Assembly (NCBI GenBank): GCA_013140775.1
Contig: JABFSA010000014.1
Location: 15,376 to 79,375, forward strand
DNA from: Acidobacteriota bacterium
GTDB lineage: Bacteria > Acidobacteriota > Vicinamibacteria > Vicinamibacterales > UBA2999
DNA: 64,000 bases
Direction: 5' to 3'
The notes under the pieces were generated by a model. That model ran no database searches. It saw only the letters and a list, made by a program, of their open reading frames with translations, and was not told where the DNA came from. Both the position numbers and the translations under genes were made by a program. Each line of letters begins with the position of its first letter. The first letter of the stretch is position 1. Shown here piece after piece: positions 612 through 36,894 of this stretch.

Positions 612-1445
612 ATGCGTTTCATTGCACCAGCCCTGCTCGCCCTCGCGACAGCCGTGACTGCCGCTTCCTTCGCTCCCGCACTGGCCGCGCAAGCCCCGGC
701 CCAGGCGTATGTCCCCGCGCGCACCCCCGACGGCTACCCGAACGTCGAGGGCGTGTGGCGTGCCTGGAACCTCGCGAAGTTCGATCTCGAAGACCATGGT
801 GCCAGGCCCGGGATTCCCGCCGGCCGCGGGTTCGTCGTCGATCCGCCTGACGGCAGGATTCCGTACCGACCCGAGATGCTGGCACGGCGCCAGAAGAACT
901 ACGAAGGCACGCTGACGCCGGACCCGCTTGCGAACACGGATCCACTGGCCAAGTGCTACATGCCCGGCGTTCCGCGGCTGACCTATCTCGGGTGGCCGTT
1001 TCAGATTATCCAGGACCAGCGGGACGTCAACTTCACGTACGAGTGGAGCCACAAGAAGCGGATCGTCCCGATTGGTGACACCAGTCCCCTGCCCGATCCG
1101 GACGGCGGCCTGAACCTGCGGTGGAACGGCATGGCCCGCGGCCGCTATGACGGCAACTCGCTCGTCGTCACGCTCGGGAATTTCAACGGGTACACCTGGT
1201 TCGACATGGCCGGCAACTTCCACAGCGATGCGCTCACCGTCGTGGAGCGGTACACGCCGGTTGGTCCCGACACCTTGCAGTACGAGGCCACGATGACCGA
1301 TCCGAAGGTGTTCACCCGCCCGTGGACGATCCGCATGGTGCTGCAGCGCCAGAAGGAGGTCGGCCTGCTCGATTACGAGTGCACCGCGATGCTCGACGAC
1401 CTCGGTATTGGTCACACGTTCCCGAGAGACTTCGATGTTCAGTAG
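612..1445 (+). CDS. Secreted DUF6152-associated 'large partner' protein, subfamily I
   Basis: Sec signal (ALA-AQ); RTPDGYPNVEGVW, DPPDGRIPY, DPLAKC, GRYDGNSLVV, DPKVFTRPW, C-terminal YEC. Confidence 0.8.
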   Translation: MRFIAPALLALATAVTAASFAPALAAQAPAQAYVPARTPDGYPNVEGVWRAWNLAKFDLEDHGARPGIPAGRGFVVDPPDGRIPYRPEMLARRQKNYEGTLTPDPLANTDPLAKCYMPGVPRLTYLGWPFQIIQDQRDVNFTYEWSHKKRIVPIGDTSPLPDPDGGLNLRWNGMARGRYDGNSLVVTLGNFNGYTWFDMAGNFHSDALTVVERYTPVGPDTLQYEATMTDPKVFTRPWTIRMVLQRQKEVGLLDYECTAMLDDLGIGHTFPRDFDVQ

Positions 1446-1461
1446 CCACGCAAGGAGCACC

Positions 1462-2406
1462 ATGAAGGTTCAATCTTCCGTCGCACTGTCGATCGCACTG
1501 GTCACGACCGGGCTGGTTGTCATGTCCGTGCCCGCCTTGGCCCAGGGACGCGGAGGAGGCGGACGCGGGGGCGGCGCGCCGAGGGTGGCGCCGGCGCTCC
1601 CGCCTGCCGGTCCGATTCCGCGCACCGCGGATGGGAAACCCAACCTTGAAGGGGTCTTCAGCGGCATGGGTTCGGGCCTGACGCATACCGTGATTCTCGA
1701 GACTCACACGTCCGGGTTCGGCATTCGCGGCGGCCCGAGCCTGATCATCGATCCGGCCGACGGCGTCATCCCGTACCAGCCGTGGGCGCTCGTCGAGCGG
1801 AACAAGCGCCGGGAAGACGTGAACGCCTACGAGGATCCCGTCGGCCACTGCGAGTTCTACGACATCGGACGCCTGCACTCGTTCGCGCAGCGTTTCATGT
1901 ACACGGGCGGCAACATCGCGATCGCCGGCCAGGAGCAGATCGTCCGCATCATCGACATGAACCGCAAGCAGCACCTGCCGGCAAGCATCCGTCTCTGGAA
2001 CGGCGATCCGATTGGCCGGTGGGAGGGAGACACGCTGGTCATCGACACGACCAATTTCAACGGCAGGACGCGCATGGCGCTCGGCGGCGACTTCTACAGC
2101 CCGAACGCCCAGACGGTCGAGCGTTACACGATGAAGGATTCGAACACCATCACGTGGACGATGACCATCACCGATCCGACGGTGTTCACGCGTCCGTGGA
2201 CGTTTACGACCGCAGCGCCGATGACGCGGCAGGTCGAAGGCAGCAACGACTGGAGCCGCGCGTTACGGCTCCTCGACCCGGCGTGGGAACACGACTGTCA
2301 TGAAGGCAACGTCGTCCTGCGCCACATGCGGAACGTCTACGACAAGGCGTACGGCGGCAAGTGGCGTCAGCAGACCGTCCCGGGATCGGTCCCAGCCGCG
2401 CCGTAA
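1462..2406 (+). CDS. Secreted DUF6152-associated 'large partner' protein, subfamily I (tandem paralog)
   Basis: AAGGAG RBS; signal peptide; RTADGKPNLEGVF, DPADGVIPY, DPVGHC, GRWEGDTLVIDTTNF, DPTVFTRPW, HDCHEGN. Confidence 0.8.
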   Translation: MKVQSSVALSIALVTTGLVVMSVPALAQGRGGGGRGGGAPRVAPALPPAGPIPRTADGKPNLEGVFSGMGSGLTHTVILETHTSGFGIRGGPSLIIDPADGVIPYQPWALVERNKRREDVNAYEDPVGHCEFYDIGRLHSFAQRFMYTGGNIAIAGQEQIVRIIDMNRKQHLPASIRLWNGDPIGRWEGDTLVIDTTNFNGRTRMALGGDFYSPNAQTVERYTMKDSNTITWTMTITDPTVFTRPWTFTTAAPMTRQVEGSNDWSRALRLLDPAWEHDCHEGNVVLRHMRNVYDKAYGGKWRQQTVPGSVPAAP

Positions 2407-2431
2407 CAGATCGGGACCGCCGCGCAGGCGG

Positions 2432-2929
2432 CTACGACTTCTTGTCGTAGATGGCCGTTTCGGTGTCGGAGCTGCCGTCCTGCGTGACAGTCTTCAGGAC
2501 AGTCAGCTCGTTGCCCTTGACCGTCCAGACCTCCCGGAACTCGATCACCGTATCGCCGGCTGGCGAGGAGAACGAGCGCCGCGAGGTGATGACCAGGGTG
2601 GCGCCGTCGAACTTGGCCTCGCCTGTTTCCGTGATGCCCTCGGGGGCGGCCACGTTGACGCGACTCCCATCCAGCTTGAAGACAGCCTTGAACGGATCCT
2701 GTCTGACGCTGGTGCGTTCGACCGTCAATTCGGTCGGCGACTGTGCGATGACCATCTGGCTGGGAAAGGGCACGTCGGCCCCGTTGCCCGCGATGCGCTC
2801 GCCGCTCTTGTCGAAGTTGAGGAGCCATGTCCCTGAGAGGTTCGGCATCGACTGCGCGAACGCCGCGCTCGCGGAAACGAACGTGAGTGCCGCAAACAGA
2901 ATGGTCGCGCGTAACGGCTTTCTGTTCAT
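2432..2929 (-). CDS. Secreted hypothetical protein, probable lipocalin-like beta-barrel
   Basis: Signal peptide AFA-Q then PNLSGTW; alternating beta-strand pattern; TACACT just upstream of ATG. Confidence 0.7.
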   Translation of the reverse strand: MNRKPLRATILFAALTFVSASAAFAQSMPNLSGTWLLNFDKSGERIAGNGADVPFPSQMVIAQSPTELTVERTSVRQDPFKAVFKLDGSRVNVAAPEGITETGEAKFDGATLVITSRRSFSSPAGDTVIEFREVWTVKGNELTVLKTVTQDGSSDTETAIYDKKS

Positions 2930-2976
2930 AGGGGCTGAGTGTACACCCGGTCGTCTCGGGTGACGACACCTGCGCT

Positions 2977-8342: not shown

Positions 8343-9989
8343 ATGGCCATCACCCGCCGCGACTTCGTACGGACCACCGCGTCGCTGGCTCCGTTCGTCG
8401 CCAGCCAGTTGACGAGCGCGCAAAGCCCGGCGACAGCCATTCAGGCGCCCGGGCGAACCGCCGCGCCTGCCGAACGCTTTGACTACGTGATCGCCGGCGC
8501 AGGGCACAACAGCCTCGTGTGCGCGGCCTACCTCGCCAAAGCCGGGAACCGCGTGCTGGTACTCGAAGGACGTCCATTGATCGGTGGCGGTGTAAAGACC
8601 GCTGAGGTCCTCCTGCCAGGCTTCAAGCAGGATCTCTGCTCGAGCGCGCACAACGGCATCAATCAGAATCCGATGCTGCGCGACAACGAGATCCCGTTGC
8701 GCGAGTACGGCTACGAAGTCATCGACCCGGACGTCGTCGTCCACATTCCCTTCCTCGACGGCGCATCCTTCACAGTGTTCAGGCGCGACGTTGCGCGTAC
8801 CGCCGAGACGATCGCACGCGTGTCAAAGAAGGATGCGGAGACCTTCACCCGGCTCCTGGCGTCGCGCCAGAAGGTGCTCGCGATGTCCGCCGGGGATCGC
8901 GCCAAGACCAGAGAAGGAGTCTTCTGGGAACGCATCGGAGCGCTTTCGGGATTCGATGCCGCGAAGCAGATCTGGGAGAGCCCGCACATGCGCGCGGCCA
9001 ACCTGTCGGCGGGCCACTTCGGCGGCGTGCCCGGCAGCGATTCCGGCACCGGCAACCAGGCGGTGTCGATGATGACCCACCTGAACGGGCGACCGATGCC
9101 GAAGGGTGGCTCGGGCATGCTGACGGTTGCCCTTGGCCGCTACCTCGAGGCGAACAATGCGGTGATCCTGACCAGCAAGCCGGTCGCGCGGTTGATCATC
9201 GAGAACAACCGGTGCACGGGTGTCGAGTGCGTGGACGGCAGCCAGTATCGCGGCCAGAAGGGCGTTGTCTCGACGATTCATCCCAAGAACCTGATCGGCA
9301 TGGCGCCGCGCGAGCTCTGGGGCGATGCGCTGCTCGACACGGTGGACATCTGGCAGCCCGAGCACGCGATGTTCGCGTTTCACTTCGCGCTCGCCGAATC
9401 GCCGAAGTATCCCCTTTCAACCGGCGGCACGATCGGCAGTTGTGAAGCGTCGATCATGCAGCGGCCCGAGAGCATCTTTCAGCTGAACACCGATCAGGCG
9501 CGCGGTGAGTTGAATATCGAGGACTACCCTCTGCAGATCGTGCATCCTTCCGTGTTCGACACCACGCGCGTGCCACCGGGTTACGGCGCCGTCAAGATCG
9601 AGGGCACCATGCCCTACGGACTGAAAGAAGGGCCCCACCACTGGGATGCGATTAAGGAGCGCGTGGCAGACCAGCTCCTGACCTACTACCTGCGTCACAC
9701 GGCCAACCTCACGAAAGACAAAGTTCTGGCGAAGTTCCTGCTCAGTCCAATCGACATCGAGCGCATGAATCCCTCGATGTGGCGAGGAAGCGTGCACCAT
9801 AGCGTCCGCGAACTTGGAAACTTCGCGCCGTATCGCATGCCGATCCCGGGTCTGTATCAGACGGGAGGATCGACTGCACCAGGCGGCTCGGTCACGGGCC
9901 AGCCGGGACGAAACGCCGCGATGGTCATCCTGCAGGATGACGGGAAGACGCTGGAGCAGGTGGTCGGAAAGGCGCCACGCAGTGCGTAG
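8343..9989 (+). CDS. Tat-exported FAD-dependent oxidoreductase, phytoene dehydrogenase-like (COG1233-type)
   Basis: AGGAG RBS; TRRDFV Tat motif; VIAGAGHNSLVCAAYLA dinucleotide fold; PKGGSGML; GLYQTGGSTAPGGSVTGQPGRNAA. Confidence 0.88.
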   Translation: MAITRRDFVRTTASLAPFVASQLTSAQSPATAIQAPGRTAAPAERFDYVIAGAGHNSLVCAAYLAKAGNRVLVLEGRPLIGGGVKTAEVLLPGFKQDLCSSAHNGINQNPMLRDNEIPLREYGYEVIDPDVVVHIPFLDGASFTVFRRDVARTAETIARVSKKDAETFTRLLASRQKVLAMSAGDRAKTREGVFWERIGALSGFDAAKQIWESPHMRAANLSAGHFGGVPGSDSGTGNQAVSMMTHLNGRPMPKGGSGMLTVALGRYLEANNAVILTSKPVARLIIENNRCTGVECVDGSQYRGQKGVVSTIHPKNLIGMAPRELWGDALLDTVDIWQPEHAMFAFHFALAESPKYPLSTGGTIGSCEASIMQRPESIFQLNTDQARGELNIEDYPLQIVHPSVFDTTRVPPGYGAVKIEGTMPYGLKEGPHHWDAIKERVADQLLTYYLRHTANLTKDKVLAKFLLSPIDIERMNPSMWRGSVHHSVRELGNFAPYRMPIPGLYQTGGSTAPGGSVTGQPGRNAAMVILQDDGKTLEQVVGKAPRSA

Positions 9990-10530
9990 GGGATTCTTCG
10001 TATTGCTGCTGGCGCCGTTGCTCGCCCTGTTCGTCACAGGAGTGTTAAGAGCACAGCAGGGCGCGACCGCGACGCCGGAAGTGCCCCGGCACCTGGCGCC
10101 GCCACCCGCGCCGGTGCAGCCACTCCCCTTCAGTCACAGGACGCACGTCAAAGTTGGCGCGCAGTGCCAGACCTGTCACAGCGCGACGACGGGCGCGCAG
10201 ATGACGTTTCCGGAAACGGCGACGTGCATGAAGTGTCATCGAACGATTGCGGCCAACCGGCCGACGATCGTCAAGCTCGCCGAATTCGCCAAGGGCACCC
10301 AACCGATTCCGTGGGTGCGCGTGTTCCGGGTGCTACCGGGCGTCACGTGGACTCATCGTCCCCACCTGCAGGCCGGCGTGCGGTGCGAGACGTGTCACGG
10401 CAACGTCCCCGAGATGGACACGATGTCGATGGCCACATCGGTGACGGGAATGGCGGCGTGCGTGACGTGTCATCAGGAGCGCAAGGCCAGCACCTCGTGC
10501 ACGACATGTCACGTGTGGCCGGCGACGTAA
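9982..10530 (+). CDS. Pentaheme cytochrome c (c3/c7, ActA-like)
   Basis: Five CxxCH motifs (CQTCH, CMKCH, CETCH, CVTCH, CTTCH); QPLPFSHRTH and IPWVRV; GTG start overlaps the upstream stop. Confidence 0.88.
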   Translation: MRRGFFVLLLAPLLALFVTGVLRAQQGATATPEVPRHLAPPPAPVQPLPFSHRTHVKVGAQCQTCHSATTGAQMTFPETATCMKCHRTIAANRPTIVKLAEFAKGTQPIPWVRVFRVLPGVTWTHRPHLQAGVRCETCHGNVPEMDTMSMATSVTGMAACVTCHQERKASTSCTTCHVWPAT

Positions 10531-10546: not shown

Positions 10547-10936
10547 TCAGTCGAACCGTTCGTTCTCGAGAATGCCCCAGCTCCACCCATCCTTCGGACG
10601 CTTGAAGGTGAGCAGCCGTACGCGATGGTCGGCCGCATTGCGGCCCGGATTGCCGGTGATGATCACTTCGTCGCCGGGCTTCAGCGTGTCTCTCGACACC
10701 GTGCCGCTCAGCTGAGCAGGCGAACCCCACTCGACGACGTAGCGGTTGGTTGTCCCGTTCTTCTCCTTGACCATCAGGTGCACGAAGGAATGCGGATTCC
10801 TGAGAAGGAACTGGACAATCGAGCCTTCGATCGTGACGGACTGATCTTCGAGATAGGTCGCCGCAAACGAGTGATGAGCTGACGCCTGCGTCCCCAACCC
10901 GAGGACGAGCAGCGTTGCGACGAGGTAACGTCTCAT
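10547..10936 (-). CDS. DUF6152 family secreted protein
   Basis: ASA-HHSFAATY, IEGSIVQF, RNPHS, VEWGS, LKPGDEVIITG. Confidence 0.85.
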   Translation of the reverse strand: MRRYLVATLLVLGLGTQASAHHSFAATYLEDQSVTIEGSIVQFLLRNPHSFVHLMVKEKNGTTNRYVVEWGSPAQLSGTVSRDTLKPGDEVIITGNPGRNAADHRVRLLTFKRPKDGWSWGILENERFD

Positions 10937-11023: not shown

Positions 11024-11410
11024 TCATTCGACGCGGCCTCGCCACGAGAACCCGTCGCTCGGCCGATCGAGGCTCGAGATCAGCAGTCGCAGCGACGCCG
11101 AATCACGTGCCGCTTCGCCGGTGACCTTCAGCAGGTCGCCCGGCTTCAGGGTGGTGCGGGTGATCTTGGACTGGGCGAGGACGTTGGTCGAACCCCACTC
11201 GAGTGCCCAGGTCTTGACCGAGCCGTCCTTGTCGGTGACGTCAACCCGCATGAATGAATGCGGGTTCCGCCACACGAACTCCTTGACGACACCCTCGATC
11301 TCGACCTTCTGGGTCGAATCGTAGGTGGCGGAAAACGAGTGATGCGCGAACACGCCATCCGCCCCGGCGAACAAGGCGAGCCCGACGAACAGCACCAGGA
11401 TCCTGGTCAT
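11024..11410 (-). CDS. DUF6152 family secreted protein (tandem paralog)
   Basis: GGAG RBS; VFA-HHSFSATYD, EGVVKEFVWRNPHS, LEWGS, LKPGD. Confidence 0.85.
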   Translation of the reverse strand: MTRILVLFVGLALFAGADGVFAHHSFSATYDSTQKVEIEGVVKEFVWRNPHSFMRVDVTDKDGSVKTWALEWGSTNVLAQSKITRTTLKPGDLLKVTGEAARDSASLRLLISSLDRPSDGFSWRGRVE

Positions 11411-16169: not shown

Positions 16170-16179
16170 GCTCCAGCCG

Positions 16180-17912: not shown

Positions 17913-18002
17913 GATCGAAGAAGGATACGTGATCTGGCGGGCCCGACGCGAGCGACGGTCCGGATCACCGCCCCCTGCGACACACTGATACAACCGACGG
18001 TC

Positions 18003-21120: not shown

Positions 21121-21173
21121 GTGTTCTCCTGATTGGGAGCAGAGTCGAGGCGAGGCTTTGAACTCGCGGATCT

Positions 21174-22372: not shown

Positions 22373-23409
22373 CGGAGTTCCCCTCCTGGGTTCTTTGCCA
22401 GACCCGCATACACGGCATCGATAAACATACTCGTCGTCCACGGACCTGTATTCGTACCATACCGAAGATCGTAGTCCCGGCTCGGCCGCGCGGCCTTGAT
22501 CTGCTCGAGCGTCATACCGCGACCGATCATGTCCTTGACGCGATCGCGCACGATGGCCACCATCTGCTGGTAGTAGACGACTTCCGGTTGATCGACCAGA
22601 CGCCCGCGACCAGGGATCACCAGCGTCCCCGCCTCGGATTTTCTGTTGGGCACGGTCAGTTCGATGAGTCTGTTCAGACCCTCCAGCACCGTATCAGCGG
22701 TGCCTCCCGCCTGGATGTCGATCCTCGGGTAGCCCGTCATGTCTACGAGATCTCCAACGCTGATGACATCGGACGTGCGGAAGTACACGATGCTGTGACC
22801 GTCGGTCGTGGACGGGACATGCATGATGACAATCGACTCCTCGTTGAACGGCAGCTTCTTCTGAGGAGTTGAATACGTGTTGTCGGGCCACGCCCCTTCG
22901 GCCCGTGGGGCTACTTTCCCAGTGGGCGCAGACATCCGCTCAAACGCCGTCAGGTACGAAATGATGCTGGCCTTCTGGATGCCTCGCATCCCATCCGAGA
23001 CCCGTGCATCTTCCGCGGGGCGGAAGGGAATCGTGCTGCCCTTCAAGGCAAGAGCCTCATTGCCGCCGCTGTAGTCTTCGCGATCGCTGGTGTTGATGAT
23101 GTACCTGAGTGGCCGCCGGGAGATCGTTTGAATCGCAGCCCAGACCTGCTCGGTCATGTCAGCCGCACCGGCGTCGACTGCGATCACGCCGTCGTTGCCG
23201 GCATGGATGGTGATGTTGCCGCCGGCGCCAACCAGCATGTGCACGTTGCCCCGCACAGGCACCACTTCAACTTTTCCACGCGCGATCGTGTGGATGGGCG
23301 GCGCCCATGCCCAGGGCGCGTTCTGCGTATGCACACTCTCAGCGATGAACATCAGCAGAGCGCAGGTGGCTAAAGCCACCACGGACCAGTATCTGGAGGT
23401 CCCTGACAT
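22369..23409 (-). CDS. Secreted MBL-fold (cyclase-like) protein with strongly degenerate metal motif (paralog of 16938-17912)
   Basis: GAGGNI, VDAG, NTSDREDYSGGN, STTDGH, SVGD, IPGRG, GMTLEQIKAARP..GPWTT. Confidence 0.8.
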   Translation of the reverse strand: MSGTSRYWSVVALATCALLMFIAESVHTQNAPWAWAPPIHTIARGKVEVVPVRGNVHMLVGAGGNITIHAGNDGVIAVDAGAADMTEQVWAAIQTISRRPLRYIINTSDREDYSGGNEALALKGSTIPFRPAEDARVSDGMRGIQKASIISYLTAFERMSAPTGKVAPRAEGAWPDNTYSTPQKKLPFNEESIVIMHVPSTTDGHSIVYFRTSDVISVGDLVDMTGYPRIDIQAGGTADTVLEGLNRLIELTVPNRKSEAGTLVIPGRGRLVDQPEVVYYQQMVAIVRDRVKDMIGRGMTLEQIKAARPSRDYDLRYGTNTGPWTTSMFIDAVYAGLAKNPGGELR

Positions 23410-24314
23410 CACTGACCCCGATCCCCTTCTCCCATCACGGTCTTCGGACGAGGCAGTGTCTTCATCTTTGCGATGTATTCGGGATACATCGTCTCTACGC
23501 CTCCAAGCCTCGGCTCGTACGGCGTGCCAAACGCGTCGGTCATGTTCGGATCGTGCGCTGGCAGAAAACTCTTGCCAGGCAACGAATGCGGCACCGTTCC
23601 CGGTTCGACGACGGTGCCGGTCGCCTCCTCGCATGGATACGGAGGCAGCACGAGGTTCGGGTCGTTCACCCAGAACAGGGATGTCCGGAGATACGGTGCG
23701 TCCATGTAGATCGGGTCGTAGATGATCACCGTCGCGCGCAGGTAGTTGCCGATGCGTTTCCATCGTGTGCGTACGGTCGCGCGATCGCTCCGCATGGGTC
23801 CCCACCGTCGAAGGTAGTTTTCCTTCAGATGTGTTGTCGTCTGCACGAGCGTGTTGCCTTCGAACTCGCCCAACGAGAAGCCGCTCCAGCTGTAACGCAC
23901 CTGGTCGGATGGCCTCGGACGGTTGTCCAGCCAGATATCCGATTCCTGCTCGCGCATCGACAGGCGGCCGTGAAAGGCGACGATGCGTTGCGTGGAATCT
24001 TCGACCTCGGGGACCCACCGCAACTGCGAGGGTCCTGCCTCAATCGAATAGTCGAACGAGTGCGGACGGCACACCAGTTCGGCAACTTCGAAATTCTCGG
24101 GAACCCAGCTGAGCGCCCGCTGACGCCCAGCCTCGTTGAGCGGCAGGCCGGCGAGGTCGCCGTCCATGCCGCTTCCATCCTGATTCCTGGCGAGCGGCCG
24201 CCAGAGGCCCGCCAGATCCACTTGCGCGGATACCGGCGACGCCAGCGTCACACCCACCAGGACGAGTACCCCACGCGCGAACGCCGTAACCCCAGTCGAA
24301 CGCTTCTGTTTCAC
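23409..24314 (-). CDS. Secreted 'large partner' protein, subfamily II
   Basis: VSA-QVDLAGLW; GLPLNEAGR; VCRP; IWLDNRP; GEFEGNTL; YPC; VPHSLPG; ETMYPEY. Confidence 0.8.
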   Translation of the reverse strand: MKQKRSTGVTAFARGVLVLVGVTLASPVSAQVDLAGLWRPLARNQDGSGMDGDLAGLPLNEAGRQRALSWVPENFEVAELVCRPHSFDYSIEAGPSQLRWVPEVEDSTQRIVAFHGRLSMREQESDIWLDNRPRPSDQVRYSWSGFSLGEFEGNTLVQTTTHLKENYLRRWGPMRSDRATVRTRWKRIGNYLRATVIIYDPIYMDAPYLRTSLFWVNDPNLVLPPYPCEEATGTVVEPGTVPHSLPGKSFLPAHDPNMTDAFGTPYEPRLGGVETMYPEYIAKMKTLPRPKTVMGEGDRGQ

Positions 24315-24361: not shown

Positions 24362-27300
24362 TCAGAACTGGTACTTCAGCGCCAGCTGAATGATGCGCGG
24401 ATCGCCCGCGGAAATAATCTGGCCGAAGGTGCCGCTGTTGAGCGCCGCAACGGGGTCGTCATAGTGCACGCGGTTCAACAGGTTGAACACCTCGCCCCGG
24501 AACTGAACCTGCTGCTTGCCACCAAAGCGGAACGAACGGGTGACGCCCATGTCCACGTTGAAGCGACGGGGGCCCACCAGGCTGTTGCGTTCCAGATTCC
24601 CGAAAGTACCAGCCGCCGGGGCCTGGAAGGCCGCGGGATTGAGCCAGCGCAGCCCGTCCTTCACATACACATCGTCGGATATCTTGTTCGGCCGCTGACC
24701 GGCCTGTCCGTTCAGTGCGTTGTCCACACCCGTCTGGACATCGAAGTGCCTGCCGCTGCGCGCGGCCACGATGGCCGACACCTGCCAGTCGCGCGTCAGG
24801 ACACTGAGTGCGCCACCTTGCGAGCCAGGAATCTGATACACCACCGACATGTTACCGACGTGCCGCTGATCTGTGGTGCCGCAGCTGCCGCGGTCGAACG
24901 CCACGTCGCCCGGCTTCGTGAGATTGATGCCTGCGATCCCCGGCTCGTAGTTGATGACGTCCGTGACGCACTCAGACATCGTGTAGTTACTCGAGAGGAA
25001 GAGGCCCCGCGTTCCGCGATGCTGCAGGGATAGCATCAGCGCGTTGTACTCCGAGGTGCCGACGGGGTTGACAGCATAGATCGCGCCGTACAGCCGACCC
25101 GCCGCGGGATTCTCGAGCGTAAGCAGCCGTCTCGCGGCCGTTGTTGCGGTGGTCGCGCCCGGGCTGTAGATGGCGGGGTTCAGCTGATCGCCGACCGGGA
25201 GGCGGTTACCGCGATTGGCGAGGTAATTCGCTGAGACCATCCACGATGCGCCGAGCTGCCGCTGCAGACTGACGTTCCACTGGTCCGAGTACGGTGGTTT
25301 GCCATCGAGAGGGAACGTGACGAACCCACCGCCGGGCGGGAAGATCATGTCGGCGCTCTCGATGAGCGGGAATGGGTTGCCGCCGGGCGTGTTGACCCAC
25401 GGATCGTCGAACACCGCATTGGTCACGTCGATCTGCGTGCCGAAGGGCGTGAGTCGATCGAACCCGGCGAAATACTGCATGTGAGGCAAGTCGAAGAACC
25501 GGCCCCACGCCGCGCGCACGGTCATACGACCGTCGCCAAGCGGGTCCCACGCCGCGGCCAGACGCGGTGCGAAGTTCGGCAGATACGATTCGTTCTCGAG
25601 GCCAGGATCACCGTCGAACAGCACGCCCACCGGAGCGTTCTTGAACCGTGTGCTGCGAACGCCGGCGCGGAACTGTTCGAGACTGAAGTGATTGAAGCGC
25701 CCGAGATCGTTCTTGTACTGGAAGAACGGATCCCAGCGGAGGCCAACGTTCAGCGTGAGCCTCGGCGTCACCGTCCACGCATCCTGGACGTACGAGCCCA
25801 AGTAGTTCATGTGGCCGAAGGGCGTGAAGGGCTGCGCTTGATTGAACGCCGACGGACGTCCGAGCAGGAAGTCCGCGAGCCCGAGCCCCGTGATACTGCC
25901 GTTGAAGACGAAGTTGCCCGCACCGGCGCCAATCGAATCCCCGTCCAGACCCGAACGGATGAAGTTGAAGCCCACACCAAGTTGGTGCTGTCCGCGGACG
26001 ACGCTGAAGTCGTCGCTGACCTGGAATGCTGTCGTCGCGTACCTGCTGGGTCTGGCGCCAGACGGTCCCATCGAAAAGCCGCCCGACACGCTATAGGGCC
26101 CGAAGCCGGGGAGAGGAATGGCGACGTTCCGGATCCCGAGCGTGCCGTGATCGAAGTAGGGCACGTATTCCTTACGAACATCGGCACTGTTGTAGACCAC
26201 GCGGAACGAATTGACGGTATTCGATCCGAGCAGCAAGGTGTCGCCGATCACAACCGAGTGAATGGTGTCGTTGATTGGACCGTTCGCGTAGGCCAGCACG
26301 TTGTCCGGATCGTTGTCGGGCTCCGACTCGTACTGTGCGAGCTGGTAGCGGCCGAAGAGCGAGTGGTTGTTGTTCAACTGGTAATCGAGACGGCCGACGC
26401 CGAGGTGCTCGAAACTCTGCGTCTTCCGGGCGAAGAAGGTCTGGCCGCAGTCGTTCACCGGCGCGGGTAGCCTCGCCTGGAGGTTACGCGCGGCCGGCGA
26501 GAAGAGCGCCGGATCGACCCGAGTGCCGACGAACGGCGCGCGCAGTGCGATCGTGCGGCCCGCATTGCACGCCGGCGACGTGATCGCGGTGAAATCTCCG
26601 GCCATCATCGCGGGCGTCGGTACGAACTGAAAGAAGTCGGTGGGGGTCACGTTCACGCGGGTGCCCTGGTAGGCGCCGAAATAGAACAGTTTCCCGGGAA
26701 GGATGGGGCCACCCAGCGTGCCGCCGAACTGATCGCGGCGCAGACCGTCATCGCGGCGCTTGCCGTCCGGGCCAATCGACGCAAAGGCGTTCTTGGCATT
26801 GAGTGAGGAGTCGCGCATGAACTCGAACGCACTGCCGCTCATGACGTTCGTGCCTGACTTCGTGACGGCGTTGACGGCCGCGGATGAATGGTGCCCGTAC
26901 TGTGCTGGCAGCGCGCTCGTCTCGACCTTGAACTCCTGCATCGCATCGGGAAACGGCAGGGGCAGGCTCAGATTGTTGAACGGATCGTTGTGCGTGCCGC
27001 CGTCGAGGCTGTACGTCACGCCGTTCGACAGTCCTCCCCCAACGACGATCGTCGTGTTGGGGTAACTGCGGATAGCTGTGTTCAACATCGACGCGCTCGG
27101 CGCGTCGGCGGTGCCCGCTCCGCCCGTCGCCACACCCGACTGGAAGATCAGCTCGGTCAGCTGCCGGCCGTTGAGCGGCAGCTCGAGGACCTGCTCGTTC
27201 GTGATCACCTGCCCGATGCCGGGGTTACGCGTCTCGACCAGCGCCGCACTGCCCTGCACCGTGACGGTCTCTTCGAGCTGGCCGAGCTCGAGCGTCACGG

Positions 27301-27649
27301 CAAGCGTGGGATTCGAGCCGACCTGCAGGACGATGCCGGTCTGGACGTAGGTGCGGAATCCCCCGAGTGACGCCTCGAAACGGTACGGTCCAACCGGCAG
27401 ATTCTGCAGGATGTACGAACCGGTCTCGTTGGTCACGACCGTGCGGGTCAACCCCGTGCCGGTGTTCGTGACCGTTACCGTCACGCCGGGCAGAGCGAGT
27501 CCGCCCTGATCCCGGACGCTACCGTTGATCTGTGCGGTGGCCTGGGCGAATACGGTGGCTGTGGTGTAGTGCGCGGCTTGAGCCGCGCCTGCACAGAGAA
27601 GAAGGAGCCAGAAGCCGCGACGCACGAACGTGGTGAACGCGTGGCACAT
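24362..27649 (-). CDS. TonB-dependent receptor, Oar/acidobacterial type with carboxypeptidase-regulatory-like N-domain
   Basis: DQGGLALPGVTVT, LPLNGR, PFPDAMQEFKV, TKSGTN, QFGGTLGGP, C-terminal PRIIQLALKYQF. Confidence 0.92.
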   Translation of the reverse strand: MCHAFTTFVRRGFWLLLLCAGAAQAAHYTTATVFAQATAQINGSVRDQGGLALPGVTVTVTNTGTGLTRTVVTNETGSYILQNLPVGPYRFEASLGGFRTYVQTGIVLQVGSNPTLAVTLELGQLEETVTVQGSAALVETRNPGIGQVITNEQVLELPLNGRQLTELIFQSGVATGGAGTADAPSASMLNTAIRSYPNTTIVVGGGLSNGVTYSLDGGTHNDPFNNLSLPLPFPDAMQEFKVETSALPAQYGHHSSAAVNAVTKSGTNVMSGSAFEFMRDSSLNAKNAFASIGPDGKRRDDGLRRDQFGGTLGGPILPGKLFYFGAYQGTRVNVTPTDFFQFVPTPAMMAGDFTAITSPACNAGRTIALRAPFVGTRVDPALFSPAARNLQARLPAPVNDCGQTFFARKTQSFEHLGVGRLDYQLNNNHSLFGRYQLAQYESEPDNDPDNVLAYANGPINDTIHSVVIGDTLLLGSNTVNSFRVVYNSADVRKEYVPYFDHGTLGIRNVAIPLPGFGPYSVSGGFSMGPSGARPSRYATTAFQVSDDFSVVRGQHQLGVGFNFIRSGLDGDSIGAGAGNFVFNGSITGLGLADFLLGRPSAFNQAQPFTPFGHMNYLGSYVQDAWTVTPRLTLNVGLRWDPFFQYKNDLGRFNHFSLEQFRAGVRSTRFKNAPVGVLFDGDPGLENESYLPNFAPRLAAAWDPLGDGRMTVRAAWGRFFDLPHMQYFAGFDRLTPFGTQIDVTNAVFDDPWVNTPGGNPFPLIESADMIFPPGGGFVTFPLDGKPPYSDQWNVSLQRQLGASWMVSANYLANRGNRLPVGDQLNPAIYSPGATTATTAARRLLTLENPAAGRLYGAIYAVNPVGTSEYNALMLSLQHRGTRGLFLSSNYTMSECVTDVINYEPGIAGINLTKPGDVAFDRGSCGTTDQRHVGNMSVVYQIPGSQGGALSVLTRDWQVSAIVAARSGRHFDVQTGVDNALNGQAGQRPNKISDDVYVKDGLRWLNPAAFQAPAAGTFGNLERNSLVGPRRFNVDMGVTRSFRFGGKQQVQFRGEVFNLLNRVHYDDPVAALNSGTFGQIISAGDPRIIQLALKYQF

Positions 27650-27712
27650 ATGTCCTCTACCGGTCATAAGAGTGACCGTTTTAGCAAGTGAACGATTCGA
27701 GCCTCGACCTGA

Positions 27713-28720
27713 CTAACGATTTGAACCCTCAGCGGCGGTCCGGCCCCTCGGCCCGAGCTGGCCGAATCCGCCGTCATTGCAGCTCAAGTTGGGAGCGCCA
27801 CCAGGAAGACCCTGGCGCTCGATCCAGCCACAGCAGTAACCGGGCGCGCGTGTGCCGCACGCAGCCGGTGGAACGTAGGTATTGCGGATGGTTTTTCGAT
27901 ACTCGGGATACAGCGTGTACGCGTGACCCATGGCGGCATCTTTTGGCAGGTTGAACGTGCGCACCATGAAGTTCTCTTCGGGGTTCTTGCCTGGCAGATA
28001 GTGCGGAACCTGGCCCGTGTCTTCGAGACTGGGGATCTCGTTCCCGGTCACGCAGATACCATCCTCAAACTGATTGCCGCGGGGATCATACTGCCAGACG
28101 CGGCTCACGACGTGCGGTTCGCTGAGGTAGTAGGGATCCCGCTGCACCGTGATGATCGTCAAGAGGTCGTCGTGCCGCGAGATGAACGTGGTCATAGTGG
28201 ACTCGTCGCTCGCAGGGATGCCCACGCCACGGCGAATCCAGCTCGCCTTCACGTGCGTGGTCTCTGCCACGAGGATGTCGCCCTGCCAGCGTCCAGTCGT
28301 GAATCCTCCTTCGACGTGCTGTGCATTGGCTGAAGGATGGGGTCGTCCGTCCATCCAGATCCTGAGCTCGCCTCGCAGGTTGTCGCCCGCAAGAATCCAG
28401 GCAATCACGTCAGTCCCGCTTGGTCCGAGCTCTTTGACGATCTGCACACCACGTGGCCGGTATTGGAAGACCCCGACGCCCTGGGCAAGACACTGCCGTT
28501 CATAGGTGGACGGCAGATTTGACGTATACAGCAGCGCCTTCGCCCGACCGTCGTCAGTGAGAGGCATGCCTGTGAAGTTCCCCATGAACTCCCCGGGGCC
28601 CCGCTCGATGTAGTCCTCGTACATCCGTGAGGTGTACGCGCCGGACAGTTCCATCTGGGCGAACGCGGGTGTCGCAGACGCGACCAGGATGAGTGCCAGG
28701 GCTCCGACTCGGTTCAACAT
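27713..28720 (-). CDS. Secreted 'large partner' protein, subfamily II with Cys-rich tail (close paralog of 15159-16169)
   Basis: RMYEDYIERGPGEFMGNFTGMPLTDDGRAKALLYTSNLPS; PGYCCGWIERQGLPGGAPNLSCNDGGFG. Confidence 0.82.
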   Translation of the reverse strand: MLNRVGALALILVASATPAFAQMELSGAYTSRMYEDYIERGPGEFMGNFTGMPLTDDGRAKALLYTSNLPSTYERQCLAQGVGVFQYRPRGVQIVKELGPSGTDVIAWILAGDNLRGELRIWMDGRPHPSANAQHVEGGFTTGRWQGDILVAETTHVKASWIRRGVGIPASDESTMTTFISRHDDLLTIITVQRDPYYLSEPHVVSRVWQYDPRGNQFEDGICVTGNEIPSLEDTGQVPHYLPGKNPEENFMVRTFNLPKDAAMGHAYTLYPEYRKTIRNTYVPPAACGTRAPGYCCGWIERQGLPGGAPNLSCNDGGFGQLGPRGRTAAEGSNR

Positions 28721-28808: not shown

Positions 28809-28824
28809 TATCTATTTGTTTATG

Positions 28825-29433: not shown

Positions 29434-29444
29434 ACCCGGTCGGC

Positions 29445-29460: not shown

Positions 29461-29531
29461 AGGCGTGGTAGCATCCGCGCCGTCGATCCTGCCCTTTCCG
29501 GGACGGTGAGCAAATGAGAGAACCCGCACAG

Positions 29532-30440
29532 ATGCGCGCGTGCACGTGGATTTTTCTGGCCATCCTTGCCTTCGCCGTCATTCAACGTCCATCGGTCACC
29601 CTGGCGCAGGGCGGCGGGGCCCCGGGCGGCTGGGTGACACCGGACTACGCCGAGCCTCAAGTGCCCGTGGCCCGTCGCTCGTCAGCGCCGCGGCGGAGCA
29701 TGGCCGGCACGTGGATCCCAATCGGTCGTTTCGGCACCGGCACACAGGCGGGCGGCGTGCACCTCAAGCCGAACGATGGGCGTCCCGAGAACCAGCTCCC
29801 GTACACGCCTTTCGGACTGAAGCTCTACGAGACGCACAAGGCGCTCGAGGGCGCGGATGCCGTACCGCCGGCACTGGGTAACGACCCGAGAAACCTCTGC
29901 GAGCCCCTCGGCATGCCCCGCGTGAACCACTACAACCTCAACCTCGTGCAGATCATGCAGGACGACTACAAGGTCGCGATCCTGTATCAATTCGACAACA
30001 GGTGGCGTGTCATCTGGACCGACGGCCGCCAGCTGCCGACGGTCGTCGAGGGAGGCGCGGTGAAGCTCGGTGACGAGATCCGCGAGCAGCGATTCCTCGG
30101 CTATAGCGTCGGCCGCTGGTCGGACGATACGACGCTCGAGGCCGTGACCGTGGGGACCATGCCCGAGGATCGTGTGTGGCTCGACTCGACGGGTCGTCCG
30201 ATCACCGATCAGGTGCGCGTCACCGAGCGGATCCGACGGCTCGATTCCCACACCATCGAGTGGTCGGAAACGATTGACGACCCGAAGGTCTATTCGAAGC
30301 CATGGGAGACGATGAGGCTCCCGATGCGGCTGGCCGATCCTCGTACCGACGTCATGGAGTACTACTGTTCGCCCGTCGAGCAGCAGAACTACAACCGGCG
30401 ATTCGGCAACAGTGCGAGCGGCGGCGCAGGGGGCCGGTAA
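29532..30440 (+). CDS. Secreted 'large partner' protein, subfamily I
   Basis: Signal peptide; NDPRNLCEPLGMPR; RVIWTDGR; GYSVGRWSDDTTL; DDPKVYSKPW; MEYYC. Confidence 0.8.
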   Translation: MRACTWIFLAILAFAVIQRPSVTLAQGGGAPGGWVTPDYAEPQVPVARRSSAPRRSMAGTWIPIGRFGTGTQAGGVHLKPNDGRPENQLPYTPFGLKLYETHKALEGADAVPPALGNDPRNLCEPLGMPRVNHYNLNLVQIMQDDYKVAILYQFDNRWRVIWTDGRQLPTVVEGGAVKLGDEIREQRFLGYSVGRWSDDTTLEAVTVGTMPEDRVWLDSTGRPITDQVRVTERIRRLDSHTIEWSETIDDPKVYSKPWETMRLPMRLADPRTDVMEYYCSPVEQQNYNRRFGNSASGGAGGR

Positions 30441-30471
30441 TCCCCGCATGGCTTCGGAAACGGAGGCGCGT

Positions 30472-30879
30472 ATGTTCAGAGTGCGAGTATGTGTCCTGAT
30501 CGCATCCCTGGGACTCGTGGAGCCAGTTGCGATGGCCGCTCATCACGGCAGCGCGGCGTTCGAGTCTGGCAAGAGCGTGGTGCTCAAGGGCACTGTGAAG
30601 GAGTGGGTGTACTCCAACCCGCATTGCCTGCTCGTGCTGGACGTCAAGCGTGAGGACGGCACGCTCGTCGAATGGGTGGCGGAGGGCCAGGCGCCCAACA
30701 CCATTTTCCCTGTGGGCTACCGCAAGGATTCGTTCAAGCCTGGAGATCAGGTGGCGATCACCGTCGAGCAGGTGAAGACCGGCCAGCCAGTCGGCCGGAT
30801 TCTCGAAGCGGTTCTCGCCGACGGCAGCGTGCTGGGGCGAGCCTCCTCGGCAGGCGCCCCCCCGCCGCGCGATCAGTAA
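30472..30879 (+). CDS. DUF6152 family secreted protein
   Basis: GGAGG RBS; AMAA-HHGSAAFE, KGTVKEWVYSNPHC, WVAEG, FKPGDQV. Confidence 0.85.
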   Translation: MFRVRVCVLIASLGLVEPVAMAAHHGSAAFESGKSVVLKGTVKEWVYSNPHCLLVLDVKREDGTLVEWVAEGQAPNTIFPVGYRKDSFKPGDQVAITVEQVKTGQPVGRILEAVLADGSVLGRASSAGAPPPRDQ

Positions 30880-35294: not shown

Positions 35295-35310
35295 AGCAAG
35301 AGGGTTGCCG
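35295..35310 (-). promoter_or_regulatory. Sigma-54 (-24/-12) promoter, apparently leaderless
   Basis: CGGCAA-CCCTC-TTGCT, 11 nt before ATG 35283. Confidence 0.68.
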
Positions 35311-35323
35311 GTCCGTAATGAGG

Positions 35324-35353
35324 TCGAGCCCCCAGCCCCGAGTCCCGAGCCCC
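35324..35353. repeat. Short heptamer tract (CGAGCCC/CGAGTCC); related tract at 44428-44450
   Basis: CGAGCCC CCAGCCC CGAGTCC CGAGCCC. Confidence 0.6.
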
Positions 35354-35500
35354 GGAACGTGGCCTTACAGATGCCCGCAATTCGCCACCGAATCGGTAAG
35401 AAACGGGTGGGTAGTGGCGAAGTCAGCCATGGGCTGCGATACTTACGGGGACACGTTGGTCGGTACGGCACCGGCTCCGGCACGGACGAACGAAGGAGTA

Positions 35501-35932
35501 ATGGGCATGGGCATTACGAGGCGAGCAGTGGCAATCGTCGGCGTCATCACCGCGCTGGCGGGAATCTCGGTGCAGGCGCACCACTCCTGGACGGCGGTGT
35601 TCGACGAAGACAAGCCGATCGTCGTGACGGGAACCCTGACGAAGGTCGAGTTCGTCAATCCCCACGGCTGGATCTGGATCGACGTCAAGAACGCAGACGG
35701 GACGGTCGCCAGCTATGGCGTCGAAGGCGGCGCGCCCAACGGCCTCATCCGGAACGGTGTCACCAAGAACTCGATGAAGCTCGGCGAAACGCTGACCGTC
35801 CGTGGATATGGCTCGAGAGACGGTTCGAACCTCATCGCCGGCGTGAGCTACACAAAAGCAGACGGCTCCCAGTTCTTCCTTGGCAATGAAGGCGCCGAGA
35901 ACGCAGCCAAAGCCAAGGGCAACCTCAAGTGA
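35501..35932 (+). CDS. DUF6152 family secreted protein
   Basis: AAGGAG RBS; VQA-HHSWTAVFD, TGTLTKVEFVNPHGW, VEGGAPN. Confidence 0.85.
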   Translation: MGMGITRRAVAIVGVITALAGISVQAHHSWTAVFDEDKPIVVTGTLTKVEFVNPHGWIWIDVKNADGTVASYGVEGGAPNGLIRNGVTKNSMKLGETLTVRGYGSRDGSNLIAGVSYTKADGSQFFLGNEGAENAAKAKGNLK

Positions 35933-36894
35933 GGGTGTCGGACAGTCAAGCGAGAACACGGGTTCCGGCAGGCGTGAAGACGATCGCGTTCGCAGTCGCG
36001 ATATTCATCTGCGTTCTGGCCGGGTCTCTCCCGACCCGCATGCAGGCGCAGTCGAGGCTGGCAACAGCCGGCGTGTATTCCTCGGGTCAGGCGCAACGCG
36101 GCGCGGCCGACTACAAGGCCCGCTGCGCGAAGTGCCATGGCGCTCAACTCGAAGGCCTCGCCGGCCCTCCACTGGCGGGCGCGGATTTTCTCAACATCTG
36201 GAAAAGCCAGCCGCTGTCGGACCTCTACGGCAAGGTTCACATCACGATGCCGCTGGATAGCCCTGGCACGCTGACGCCAGCGCAGTCCACGGCCCTCGTG
36301 GCGTACATCCTTCAAGGCAACAAGTTTCCGGCGGGCGGCGCGGATCTGCCTTCAGACGAGCCGGCGCTGAAGCTGATTGCACTCGCACCGGCAGGCACTC
36401 CCGCAGCACCGAGAACTGCCGCAGCAGCCGTGTCGTTCCCGGCAGTCGGCACGCTGAACCAGGTCATGCGCGGCATCCTGTTTCCCAGCTCGAACGTCCT
36501 GTTCGACGTGCAGACGCAGGATCCCGGCGCATCGGAGAAAGCTGGAGCCAAGGCCGGGGCCGCCACCACGTCCGTCCGCTACGGCAATGTCTACGGGCCG
36601 TGGATCGGCGTTGACGTCGCGGCCATCGCGATCGCGGAGTCTGCCCCGCTGCTCATGACACCGGGACGACGGTGCGAGAACGGCAAGCCCGTGCCGGTGG
36701 ACCGCGCCGACTGGCAGATGTACGTACAAGGACTCGTCGAGGCGGGTCGCGTCGCCTATAAGGCGTCTCAGTCCAGAAGCCAGGACGCCGTCAGCGAAGC
36801 CACCAACCAGATCGCTGACTCCTGCGCCAACTGCCATCGCGTCTACCGCGATGTGGCGAATCCTGCGATGCGGTGTACGCCCCCAGCCCCTTAG
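35929..36894 (+). CDS. Diheme cytochrome c: class I domain fused to a cytochrome c'-like helical domain
   Basis: CAKCH with downstream TMP (Met ligand); C-terminal CANCHRVYR; GTGA overlap with the DUF6152 stop. Confidence 0.85.
   Translation: MRVSDSQARTRVPAGVKTIAFAVAIFICVLAGSLPTRMQAQSRLATAGVYSSGQAQRGAADYKARCAKCHGAQLEGLAGPPLAGADFLNIWKSQPLSDLYGKVHITMPLDSPGTLTPAQSTALVAYILQGNKFPAGGADLPSDEPALKLIALAPAGTPAAPRTAAAAVSFPAVGTLNQVMRGILFPSSNVLFDVQTQDPGASEKAGAKAGAATTSVRYGNVYGPWIGVDVAAIAIAESAPLLMTPGRRCENGKPVPVDRADWQMYVQGLVEAGRVAYKASQSRSQDAVSEATNQIADSCANCHRVYRDVANPAMRCTPPAP

Follow-up and report, generated by a model that had tools for sequence, protein, structure and literature searches.

In the periplasm, metal handling is served both by the OB fold, as in CusF, and by the calycin fold, as in ZinT. 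In a review of histidine-brace proteins, an N-terminal histidine freed by signal cleavage is given as the hallmark of the copper histidine-brace of LPMO, pMMO, CopC, PmoF1 and YcnI, and the redox partners of histidine-brace enzymes can be cytochromes (PMC10952591). A stretch of 64,000 nt (the window; GCA_013140775.1, contig JABFSA010000014.1, 15,376-79,375, forward strand) was found to contain five genes of the DUF6152 family (d) and eight genes of a larger secreted family (B), and no literature was found on either. The two-part system is unstudied. What had been observed in the window is confirmed but underestimates the system, of whose many periplasmic members the window contains only a fraction; the 87 d and 108 B genes form the largest paralog cluster of the genome, and the system occupies several percent of it. 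The explanation that we tentatively prefer is that d and B are two-subunit periplasmic proteins, in which a His-triad metal site of d and a ligand pocket of B would act on receptor-imported compounds.

The DUF6152 component

The five small genes, which a sequence-only reading of the window had called DUF6152-like, were all found to match Pfam PF19649 (DUF6152) with 73.5-96.7 bits, over the gathering cut-off of 27 bits. They were located at 10547..10936 (- strand, 1.6e-20), in tandem with 11024..11410 (- strand, 5.7e-25), and at 21977..22372 (- strand, 5.1e-24), 30472..30879 (+ strand, 1.1e-23) and 35501..35932 (+ strand, 8.8e-28); the genome total was 87 matches above the cut-off. The window d were also found to contain weak Pfam matches to tRNA_anti-codon and DUF4131, and none of the five matched CopC (PF04234) at E<=0.1.

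In all five sequences, a signal-peptide-like N-terminus was found to be followed by His-His, then by NPH and later by Glu, as the sequence-only reading had described. The cleavage contexts were ASA/HHSF (ASA/HH in 10547), VFA/HHSF, ALA/HHSF and VQA/HHSW, and in 30472 (VAMAA-HH) the AxA rule equally permits a cut one residue upstream, which would give Ala-His-His. The signal peptides were of type I, with no lipobox found in the window d and B sequences. The His-His was conserved in 87/87 d of the genome, preceded by Ala in 84 and by Gly in the remaining 3, and all 87 combined a K/R-bearing n-region with A/G at position -1. The NPH, located about 25 residues beyond His-His, contained N in 91%, P in 99% and His in 100% of these sequences, followed by the later Glu in 80%. 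Both His occurred without exception among 100 diverse d representatives, with A, N, P, H and E each conserved in at least 90%. The proposed combination of His-His and NPH is invariant among the 87 paralogs as well as the diverse relatives. A gammaproteobacterial genome was found to contain (A/G)HH...NPH in 32/34 d ORFs, the other two being cut fragments. As judged from sequence, mature d would begin with His-His after signal cleavage.

The B family and its pairing with d

Three groups of large genes were found by BLASTP, and they were the same three subfamilies into which the eight paralogs had been sorted before. Subfamily I contained 603..1445 (+ strand, start likely near 612), predicted to encode a secreted calycin-like barrel protein, 1408..2406 (+ strand, start likely near 1462) and 29514..30440 (+ strand), in which 603 matched 1408 (5e-30) and 29514 (5e-14). 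Subfamily II contained 15159..16232 (- strand), with a Cys-rich C-terminal tail, 23409..24314 (- strand) and 27713..28720 (- strand, 68% identity to 15159), and subfamily III contained 16180..16938 and 21174..22004 (both - strand, 50% identity). The groups were linked by values of 1e-4 to 2e-9 between II and III and by a sole I-II link at 6.5e-4; HMMs built separately from seeds I, II and III merged them, each recovering the identical set of 108 genome ORFs. By these sequence comparisons the eight genes are one family without a Pfam or NCBIfam model, as 0/8 had any Pfam family at E<=0.1 and 0/4 tested had an NCBIfam family.

Across the 108 B, C129 (95%), C285 (93%), D256 (99%) and P263 (93%) were found to be conserved, and the GxW(E/D)G(D/N)TL strand, the DPxY..P motif and the Cys pair noticed earlier are all real. 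No conserved His or Met was found in these 108 sequences and the only conserved Cys were the pair, so B has no obvious ligands of its own, which counts against the preferred reading. The median identity among B was 25%.

An AlphaFold2 model of one d-B fusion (pLDDT 88, pTM 0.82) was found to contain a d part similar to SSB/PriB OB folds (Z 7-8.2), with many SSB, PriB and LysRS entries and a best SSB match at Z 8.2 (81 residues, rmsd 2.6), and d is accordingly modelled as an OB fold with a five-strand barrel. The B part was similar to LBP-8 (Z 8.7, 113 residues, rmsd 3.0) and nitrobindin (Z 7.8), and the model of the subfamily III protein 21174..22004 (pLDDT 78.8) contained a FABP/nitrobindin-like barrel (Z 8.5) with the same neighbour list. 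B is thus predicted to be a FABP/nitrobindin-like (calycin-like) barrel with a ten-strand core, besides which the model contains a helical N-terminal extension of about 70 residues. The calycin-type neighbour lists were homogeneous, with best Z no higher than 8.1-8.7; at E<=0.001 Foldseek gave no calycin match, the sole match of the fusion model being an OB-domain LysRS and the subfamily III model having none, and no sequence relation of B to calycin families was found. The structural similarities are modest (Z about 8), say nothing about function and count against the preferred reading.

A same-strand B was found to adjoin immediately 66/85 free-standing d, against a mean of 2.5 and a maximum of 9 in 1000 label shuffles, an association well above chance; the 19/85 free-standing d without an adjacent B count against the preferred reading. 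Natural d-B fusions were found as two ORFs in the genome. Among the best 120 matches to one fusion, 117 contained PF19649, and fused ORFs were present in 53/63 loci of Acidobacteriota, Gemmatimonadales, Gammaproteobacteria and Rhodospirillaceae MAGs. The distances of d and B were correlated (Mantel r 0.68, 62 pairs; reached in 0/2000 permutations), and in the same 301 genomes d was present in 30, B in 30 and both in 27. Because of the adjacency, the fusions kept across phyla, the co-diversification and the matching presence and absence, d and B are regarded as the functional pair that had been proposed, and they would be physically complexed.

The sequence-only reading had named two adjacent pairs in the window. 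The d gene 30472 was indeed located 31 nt 3' of its subfamily I partner 29514, and both genes of this pair were recovered together, with 0 differences, on one contig from an independent run; the second pair did not stand, since the gene next to d 21977 on that side (22369..23403, - strand) encodes an MBL-fold protein (Lactamase_B 5.3e-6), and the actual B-family neighbour is the subfamily III gene 21174..22004, which has a 28-nt overlap with the end of d. Direct neighbours of d belonged to subfamilies I and III only. Subfamilies II and III mainly accompany MBL-fold genes, and a receptor-II-MBL-d-III cassette was recurrent; the association of subfamily II with MBL genes and not with d counts against the preferred reading.

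Genomic neighbours and possible function

The neighbours named earlier were all present in the window. A TonB-dependent receptor of the Acidobacteria type (CarboxypepD_reg + OMP_b-brl_4; 24362..27667, - strand, Pfam 6.3e-185), belonging to a 73-gene cluster, was located between subfamily II genes, 27713 upstream and 23409 directly downstream, the latter followed by the rest of the II-MBL-d-III cassette. The last gene of the cassette (19477..21177, - strand) encodes a 566-aa protein with an MBL-like domain, for which the Lactamase_B score (2.4e-4) was under the cut-off and the NCBIfam MBL matches were weak. A third MBL-fold gene (16938..17993, - strand, Lactamase_B 8.9e-10, 39% identity to 22369-23403) heads an MBL-III-II operon with 16180 and, as final gene, 15159. 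A multihaem c7/c3-like c-type cytochrome with five CxxCH (9814..10530, + strand, Cytochrome_C7 8e-11) was convergent with d 10547, and the stop of d 35501 overlaps the start of a c-type cytochrome gene with a cbb3-type c domain, a cytochrome c'-like C-terminus and two CxxCH (35929..36894, + strand, Pfam).

In the whole genome, 38/73 TonB-dependent receptors (OR 9.8, p 8e-19) and 30/94 CxxCH ORFs (OR 4.1, p 1.6e-8) were located <=3 genes from d/B, and 13/14 members of one dihaem cytochrome family were also neighbours of d/B. In this genome, the suggested link to cytochromes c and receptors thus has statistical support. DUF6644 membrane proteins (8/10 ORFs <=3 kb from d) and MBL-fold proteins were also enriched, and the neighbouring enzymes were of MBL, amidase, amidohydrolase and esterase types, not glycoside hydrolases. 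Only 33/73 d/B loci contained a receptor or CxxCH ORF <=2 genes away, which counts against the preferred reading, and 40/73 contained neither.

In nine other genomes of the phylum, B was located <=4 kb from d in 18/20 loci, and in a Ca. Rariloculaceae genome <=3.5 kb from d in 16/20 loci. Genomes with a single copy were found to contain a conserved module, apparently the ancestral form, in which B-B-d is joined by two genes for DUF6644 membrane proteins; its composition suggests an assembly larger than a plain heterodimer.

On the preferred reading, d (about 110 mature residues, OB fold) would be cut by signal peptidase to start with His-His, which with the NPH His and the usually kept Glu would most likely form a transition-metal site using the free N-terminus. 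In a copper histidine-brace, a second His completes the T-shaped Cu coordination together with the N-terminal amine, and the candidates for it in d are the invariant second His of His-His and the invariant NPH His. The site of d may be histidine-brace-like, with copper as the leading candidate; an OB-fold member is not mentioned among histidine-brace proteins in the part of the source available, which counts against the reading (PMC10952591). B (250-400 residues), as a disulfide-bonded barrel, would supply the small-molecule pocket, both acting as a single unit through neighbouring genes or a fused chain. The unit would have been duplicated and diverged repeatedly, with the metal module constant and the barrel varying. 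Placed beside TonB-dependent receptors, c-type cytochromes and periplasmic hydrolases (MBL and others), the units may bind a variety of receptor-imported compounds and probably also convert them, by oxidation or in some other way, and would exchange electrons with the cytochromes.

It is less probable, and on balance unlikely, that the d-B units are non-catalytic carriers. Such carriers would take over a metal chelate or a small molecule of hydrophobic or amphiphilic nature from the TonB receptor and deliver this cargo to inner-membrane transporters or hydrolases, with the His triad gripping the cargo or docking the unit. The predicted B fold is that of classical ligand carriers (FABP, CRBP, bile-acid-binding protein, nitrobindin), B has no evident catalytic residues, the receptors are enriched and the many divergent paralogs suit diversified specificity, but His-His and NPH invariant in every paralog are hard to square with differing cargoes, and the enriched c-type cytochromes and the 40 loci with neither neighbour also stand against carriage. 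A still weaker candidate is that d is a metallochaperone or uptake protein, comparable to CopC, YcnI and CusF, acting with DUF6644 or HupE-like proteins, with B as clients or regulators. In Bryobacterales, d without B was found in an operon RND - d - receptor - cytochrome c' - HupE_UreJ_2, which looks like metal uptake, and on contig C144 d-DUF6644-DUF6644 was close to HMA-domain genes, so these two loci favour metal handling over catalysis. The d-DUF6644-DUF6644 modules exist with and without B, and DUF6644 is weakly like CopD (hhalign probability 27%, E 6.8e-4, 109 columns) and DUF2214, the model of which matches DUF6644 ORFs with scores under its cut-off. According to the histidine-brace review, copper transport is the setting of most proteins of this type other than LPMO (PMC10952591). 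Against this reading, metal homeostasis does not call for 87 to at least 150 copies of d per genome, each co-diverging with its own barrel partner and often fused with it, and the genome has only 10 DUF6644 ORFs for 87 d.

Far less probable than either is that the His-His of d reaches into B and ligates a haem, tetrapyrrole or metal complex in a nitrobindin-like manner, or that the His triad is a structural Zn site. Nitrobindin and phycobiliprotein lyases are among the structural neighbours of B (Z 6.5-7.8) and cytochromes lie nearby, but a haem-binding motif is absent, the loci examined revealed no genes for the uptake or synthesis of haem, and the constant placement of His-His directly at the cleavage site speaks for a role of the free amino terminus. 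The preferred two-subunit reading has a wider form, which we hold to be doubtful: the DUF6152-barrel units would be a new class of OB-fold periplasmic copper oxidoreductases of histidine-brace type, fed by TonB receptors and wired to c-cytochromes, with an exchangeable calycin-barrel subunit setting substrate specificity, and would provide several abundant uncultured lineages with their chief set of catabolic tools. If true, each genome of Vicinamibacterales, Ca. Rariloculaceae and other Gammaproteobacteria concerned would contain from about 70 to over 150 units.

Comparison with known systems

CusF and ZinT were absent among the 50 best structural matches of the models, and their ligand sets differ from that of d; to our knowledge, neither occurs as a paired or expanded system. 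B shares the predicted core of the FABP/CRBP/nitrobindin/lipocalin barrels, but it departs from the FABP/nitrobindin calycins by its helical N-terminal extension and its conserved disulfide pair, by being periplasmic and by a presumed dependence on an OB-fold partner.

The d/B loci resemble SusC/SusD PULs in their many diversified loci with a TonB-dependent receptor, dedicated binding proteins and periplasmic enzymes. Unlike SusD, d and B carry signal peptides of type I without a lipobox, and no SusD/RagB Pfam match was found among the large window genes; unlike in PULs, only 22/73 d/B loci contain a receptor <=2 genes away and the enzymes are not glycoside hydrolases.

With LPMO and pMMO, d shares secretion, a distal His and a His predicted to come first once the signal peptide is removed, whereas the predicted d fold is unrelated, carbohydrate-binding modules are lacking and the putative pocket is on a separate subunit (B). 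Like CopC of CopC/CopD (YobA/YebZ) and YcnI of YcnI/YcnJ, d is a small secreted beta-protein in which cleavage would expose an N-terminal His near a His/carboxylate, and it is likewise gene-linked to small polytopic membrane proteins, DUF6644 in the case of d. In contrast to the Ig/cupredoxin-like sandwich of CopC and YcnI, d is a predicted OB fold with a His-His doublet and NPH and, unlike CopC, it lacks the CopC Pfam match and is present in at least 87 copies, paired or fused with a barrel.

Pairing of the small and large secreted proteins

The small secreted DUF6152 proteins (PF19649; d) and the larger secreted proteins with a predicted barrel (B) were found side by side in the genome of the window. 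A same-strand B gene was the immediate neighbour of 66 of the 85 free-standing d genes, with gaps of at most 150 bp, whereas 1000 shufflings of the labels gave 2.5 such adjacencies on average and 9 at most. Among 301 sampled Acidobacteriota genomes, d and B were found in 30 each: both in 27, d only in 3 and B only in 3; the 27 genomes span at least five families, and related genomes are not independent. Both the adjacency and the shared presence agree with the co-occurrence that the sequence-only reading had named as a check.

Two ORFs of the genome were found to contain both proteins in one chain, with a signal peptide and His-His followed by the d domain, a linker and a B domain without a signal peptide of its own. 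PF19649 was present in 117 of the best 120 matches to one of these fusions, most of them full length with 56-90% identity. Fused ORFs occurred in 53 of 63 loci scanned with one genome per species, and came from Acidobacteriota, Gemmatimonadales, Steroidobacteraceae, Arenicellaceae, Ca. Rariloculaceae, Pseudohongiellaceae and Rhodospirillaceae MAGs; the loci were often arrays with up to eight family members per 13 kb. In nine other Acidobacteriota genomes, B was found within 4 kb of d in 18 of 20 loci, and in a 4.4-Mb Ca. Rariloculaceae genome within 3.5 kb in 16 of 20 loci sampled from the best-scoring matches listed.

The distances among d proteins were correlated with those among their partner B proteins (62 pairs; Mantel r 0.68, a value that none of 2000 permutations attained), and the correlation was 0.49 with only d pairs below 50% identity. 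The d paralogs had a median identity of 32% and the B paralogs one of 25%, and individual paralogs had their own orthologs in other samples at 64-93% identity. Recent duplication was rejected on account of this low median identity and of the paralog-specific orthologs, and the divergence of d and B is old as judged from these sequences. A complex prediction for the mature chains of 29514 (B) and 30472 (d), run without controls, scored 0.20 where the mark was 0.32, and speaks neither for nor against binding. Since pairing, fusion and co-diversification coincide, the simplest reading is that d and B very probably form a physical two-subunit protein.

Extent of the families and their members in the window

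The families were collected from all ORFs of at least 60 residues in six frames of the genome, using HMMs iterated from the window members as seeds. Gene calls (longest ORF plus GC3) were crude, and the family counts rest on the HMM matches instead. The iterated HMM and the Pfam model each returned 87 d ORFs, and seeds from B subfamilies I, II and III all converged on one set of 108 ORFs, which was split by seed score into 85 I-like, 13 II-like and 10 III-like members. Together, d and B accounted for 195 of about 4,286 called ORFs (4.5%) and, joined through the fusions, formed the largest BLAST cluster of the genome, followed by 150 two-component genes and 73 TonB-dependent receptors.

The 30 genomes with d in the Acidobacteriota sample belonged mostly to the order of the window, and another Vicinamibacterales genome contained 114 DUF6152 matches. 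Four gammaproteobacterial MAG genomes of 4.4-6 Mb contained at least 150 matches each (161-255 candidates at first look) and thus exceeded the genome of the window, whereas DUF6152 was found in 0 of 300 other sampled Gammaproteobacteria genomes and in none of 14 model organisms. The DUF6152 family is patchy and often very large where present. Of 1.84 billion cluster representatives, 5,983 matched one window d by phmmer at E<=0.001.

The window corresponds to positions 15376-79375 of contig C46 in a 4.86-Mb genome of 183 contigs that is 94% complete. Its G+C content was 64%, and the closest database proteins carried the source labels Acidobacteria or Vicinamibacterales. Contigs of an independent study were found to cover 22228-24818, 25713-28831 and 29038-30879 with 0 differences, and chance or mis-assembly of the region was therefore rejected. 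In one sequencing run, a joint from 26511 to 28267 was found with three letters (ACA) between its sides, which is absent from the main joint table of the same mapping; this joint hints at a strain variant without about 1.75 kb, comprising the N-terminal part of the receptor and part of B 27713.

All five small genes (10547, 11024, 21977, 30472 and 35501) scored above the Pfam cut-off for DUF6152, and each contained the features first noticed by eye, a signal-peptide-like N-terminus and His-His, followed by NPH about 25 residues on and then by Glu. The earlier grouping of the eight large genes into subfamilies I (603, 1408, 29514), II (15159, 23409, 27713) and III (16180, 21174) was reproduced by BLASTP, and no family was found for the eight in Pfam or for the four tested in NCBIfam. 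One assignment fell: the gene at 22372, taken for the large partner of d 21977, encodes an MBL-fold protein, and the true B neighbour lies at 21174-22004. A common Cys-rich C-terminal tail (YCCGW followed by a further C) was observed in subfamily II members 15159-16232 and 27713-28720 (minus strand), and was absent from the third window member, 23409, and from the other subfamilies. The 191-residue secreted protein at 2432-3007 (minus strand) contained NLSGTW and FDGATLVITS, which resemble the N-terminal and strand motifs of B; it matched the B HMM with E 0.012 at best with filters off, and may be a minimal barrel relative. On the same contig, at C46:7514-13159 shortly before the left edge of the window, seven further genes were found in the order d, B (512 residues), B, d, d, B and d; the cluster therefore reaches past that edge.

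Conserved His-His motif and predicted folds

The His-His pair was conserved in 87 of 87 d paralogs of the genome, preceded by Ala in 84 and Gly in 3, with a basic n-region in all 87 and mainly V, L or A at position -3. In the same paralogs, the NPH motif was conserved at 91% (N), 99% (P) and 100% (H), followed by a later Glu in 80%. Of the best 150 phmmer matches, 100 were aligned; both His residues were present in these without exception, and A, N, P, H and E at 90% or more each. The motif was also present in 32 of 34 d ORFs at gammaproteobacterial loci, the remaining two being cut fragments. Sequence rules predict cleavage directly before His-His in d, and in 30472 the site could lie one residue earlier.

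The participation of the free amino terminus in binding is given as the rule for copper histidine-brace proteins in one review (PMC10952591). If that terminus joins in binding in d as well, the His pair should stay fixed at the predicted cleavage site, as is observed. The invariant cleavage-adjacent His-His, together with a third His and a Glu, makes a putative metal site on d rather likely. From the histidine-brace precedent, copper would be the first candidate, although the present data do not tell metals apart.

An AlphaFold2 model of one fusion, built on 92 sequences, had a mean pLDDT of 88 and a pTM of 0.82; the latter suggests that the two domains are packed in a defined way. Residues 34-121 resembled OB folds (SSB, Z 8.2 over 81 aligned residues, rmsd 2.6) and were matched by Foldseek to LysRS anticodon-binding domains. 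Residues 156-330 resembled barrels of the FABP type (LBP-8, Z 8.7 over 113 residues, rmsd 3.0) and the nitrobindin barrel (Z 7.8). These Z values are middling and therefore indicate the fold class only. The model of a window subfamily III protein (pLDDT 78.8) gave the same neighbour list as the B part of the fusion, and Foldseek returned no match for it at E<=0.001. In a PDB sequence search, no match of the fusion profile fell below E 0.37, and all matches in the ESM Atlas were unnamed Acidobacteriota clusters. The most conserved parts of B were the Gly/Trp strand motif, the Cys pair (95% and 93%), R165 (93%), E238 (92%) and D256 (99%; 29514 numbering), and no conserved His or Met was found. 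Judging by the barrel fold and by how much it varies, B would carry a putative ligand pocket.

Gene neighbourhoods and possible functions

Subfamily I was found to pair with d, and subfamilies II and III to go with MBL-fold genes: MBL genes were present at up to 1.5 kb from 10 of the 13 II genes and 9 of the 10 III genes, against only 2 of the 85 I genes. The cassette receptor-II-MBL-d-III was present in the window from 28720 to 19477 (minus strand) and recurred on contigs C119, C172, C96, C183 and C37; a shorter MBL-III-II operon occupied 17993-15159 (minus strand). The receptor, MBL-fold proteins and cytochromes c named earlier as neighbours were all found in the window, as an Acidobacteria-type TonB-dependent receptor at 24362-27667 (minus strand), three MBL-fold genes, a five-haem cytochrome at 9814-10530 and a c-type cytochrome, its start overlapping the d 35501 stop, along with a two-component regulator pair and assorted exported enzymes. 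In 38502-43178 (plus strand), a second TonB-dependent receptor (1199 residues) was followed by two small ORFs, one of which (42645-43178) encodes a c-type cytochrome with 33% identity to 35929-36894; neither a d nor a B gene adjoined this stretch. The thiamine-pyrophosphate enzyme at 3-518 (minus strand), which runs on upstream of the window, is apparently exported, since it carries a twin-arginine signal.

The zone within three genes of any d or B gene comprised 440 of 4,286 genes, and receptors and cytochromes were enriched in it. It contained 38 of 73 TonB-dependent receptors (OR 9.8, p 8e-19) and 30 of 94 CxxCH ORFs (OR 4.1, p 1.6e-8), together with 13 of 14 members of a dihaem cytochrome family, 6 of 8 of the DUF6644 membrane protein cluster, 4 of 4 Abhydrolase_10 genes and 4 of 8 thiamine-pyrophosphate enzymes of the cluster of window 3-518. 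Of 29 MBL-like ORFs, 16 lay within 3 kb of d or B, a zone that makes up 12.7% of the genome. A receptor or cytochrome was present within two genes of only 33 of 73 d/B loci. In other phyla, the recurring neighbours were NHL-repeat, MBL, amidase, arylsulfotransferase-like and dienelactone-hydrolase proteins. The dihaem proteins (380-395 residues) consisted of a PufC-like N-terminal part, in which both CxxCH motifs lay, and an unassigned, beta-rich C-terminal part of about 250 residues, and were often followed by a secreted protein of about 190 residues without a Pfam family (e.g. C108:21456-22622 and C108:22654-23247).

Genomes with a single d were found to contain the module B-B-d with two DUF6644 genes, divergent or adjacent, and sometimes a cytochrome c'-like lipoprotein; the order X-X-d-B-B, as in these genomes, was also found at one gammaproteobacterial locus. 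DUF6644 showed a weak likeness to CopD (hhalign probability 27%), and CopD itself had no match above cut-off in the genome of the window. Contig C144 contained d-DUF6644-DUF6644 near HMA-domain genes. At three loci of Bryobacterales MAGs, d was present without B in an operon of RND pump, d, TonB receptor, cytochrome c'-like protein, HupE_UreJ_2 and a small membrane protein; a His directly after the signal peptide (LLA|HN) was observed in the HupE_UreJ_2 protein too.

From the enrichment of cytochromes, redox chemistry may be supposed for at least some of the d-B family, a tentative reading that we hold to be somewhat doubtful. Two alternatives are kept alive beside it. A role of d in metal trafficking would agree with the contexts in which d occurs alone or in metal operons, and a non-catalytic shuttle formed by d and B would agree with the carrier-type fold.

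No paper on DUF6152 (PF19649), DUF6644 or PF20349 was found in the open-access literature, nor any joining 'histidine brace' and 'OB-fold'. A large family with an invariant, predicted N-terminal His-His and a partner without a model amounts to a sizeable annotation blind spot in soil, drinking-water and marine bacteria. Should the metal site on d prove to be a histidine brace, it would be without precedent both in its OB fold and in having the substrate pocket on a separate subunit, and the family would constitute an extensive natural library of binders or oxidative enzymes in the periplasm. If d and B were instead a carrier system, they would represent a SusD-like solution for receptors outside the Bacteroidota.
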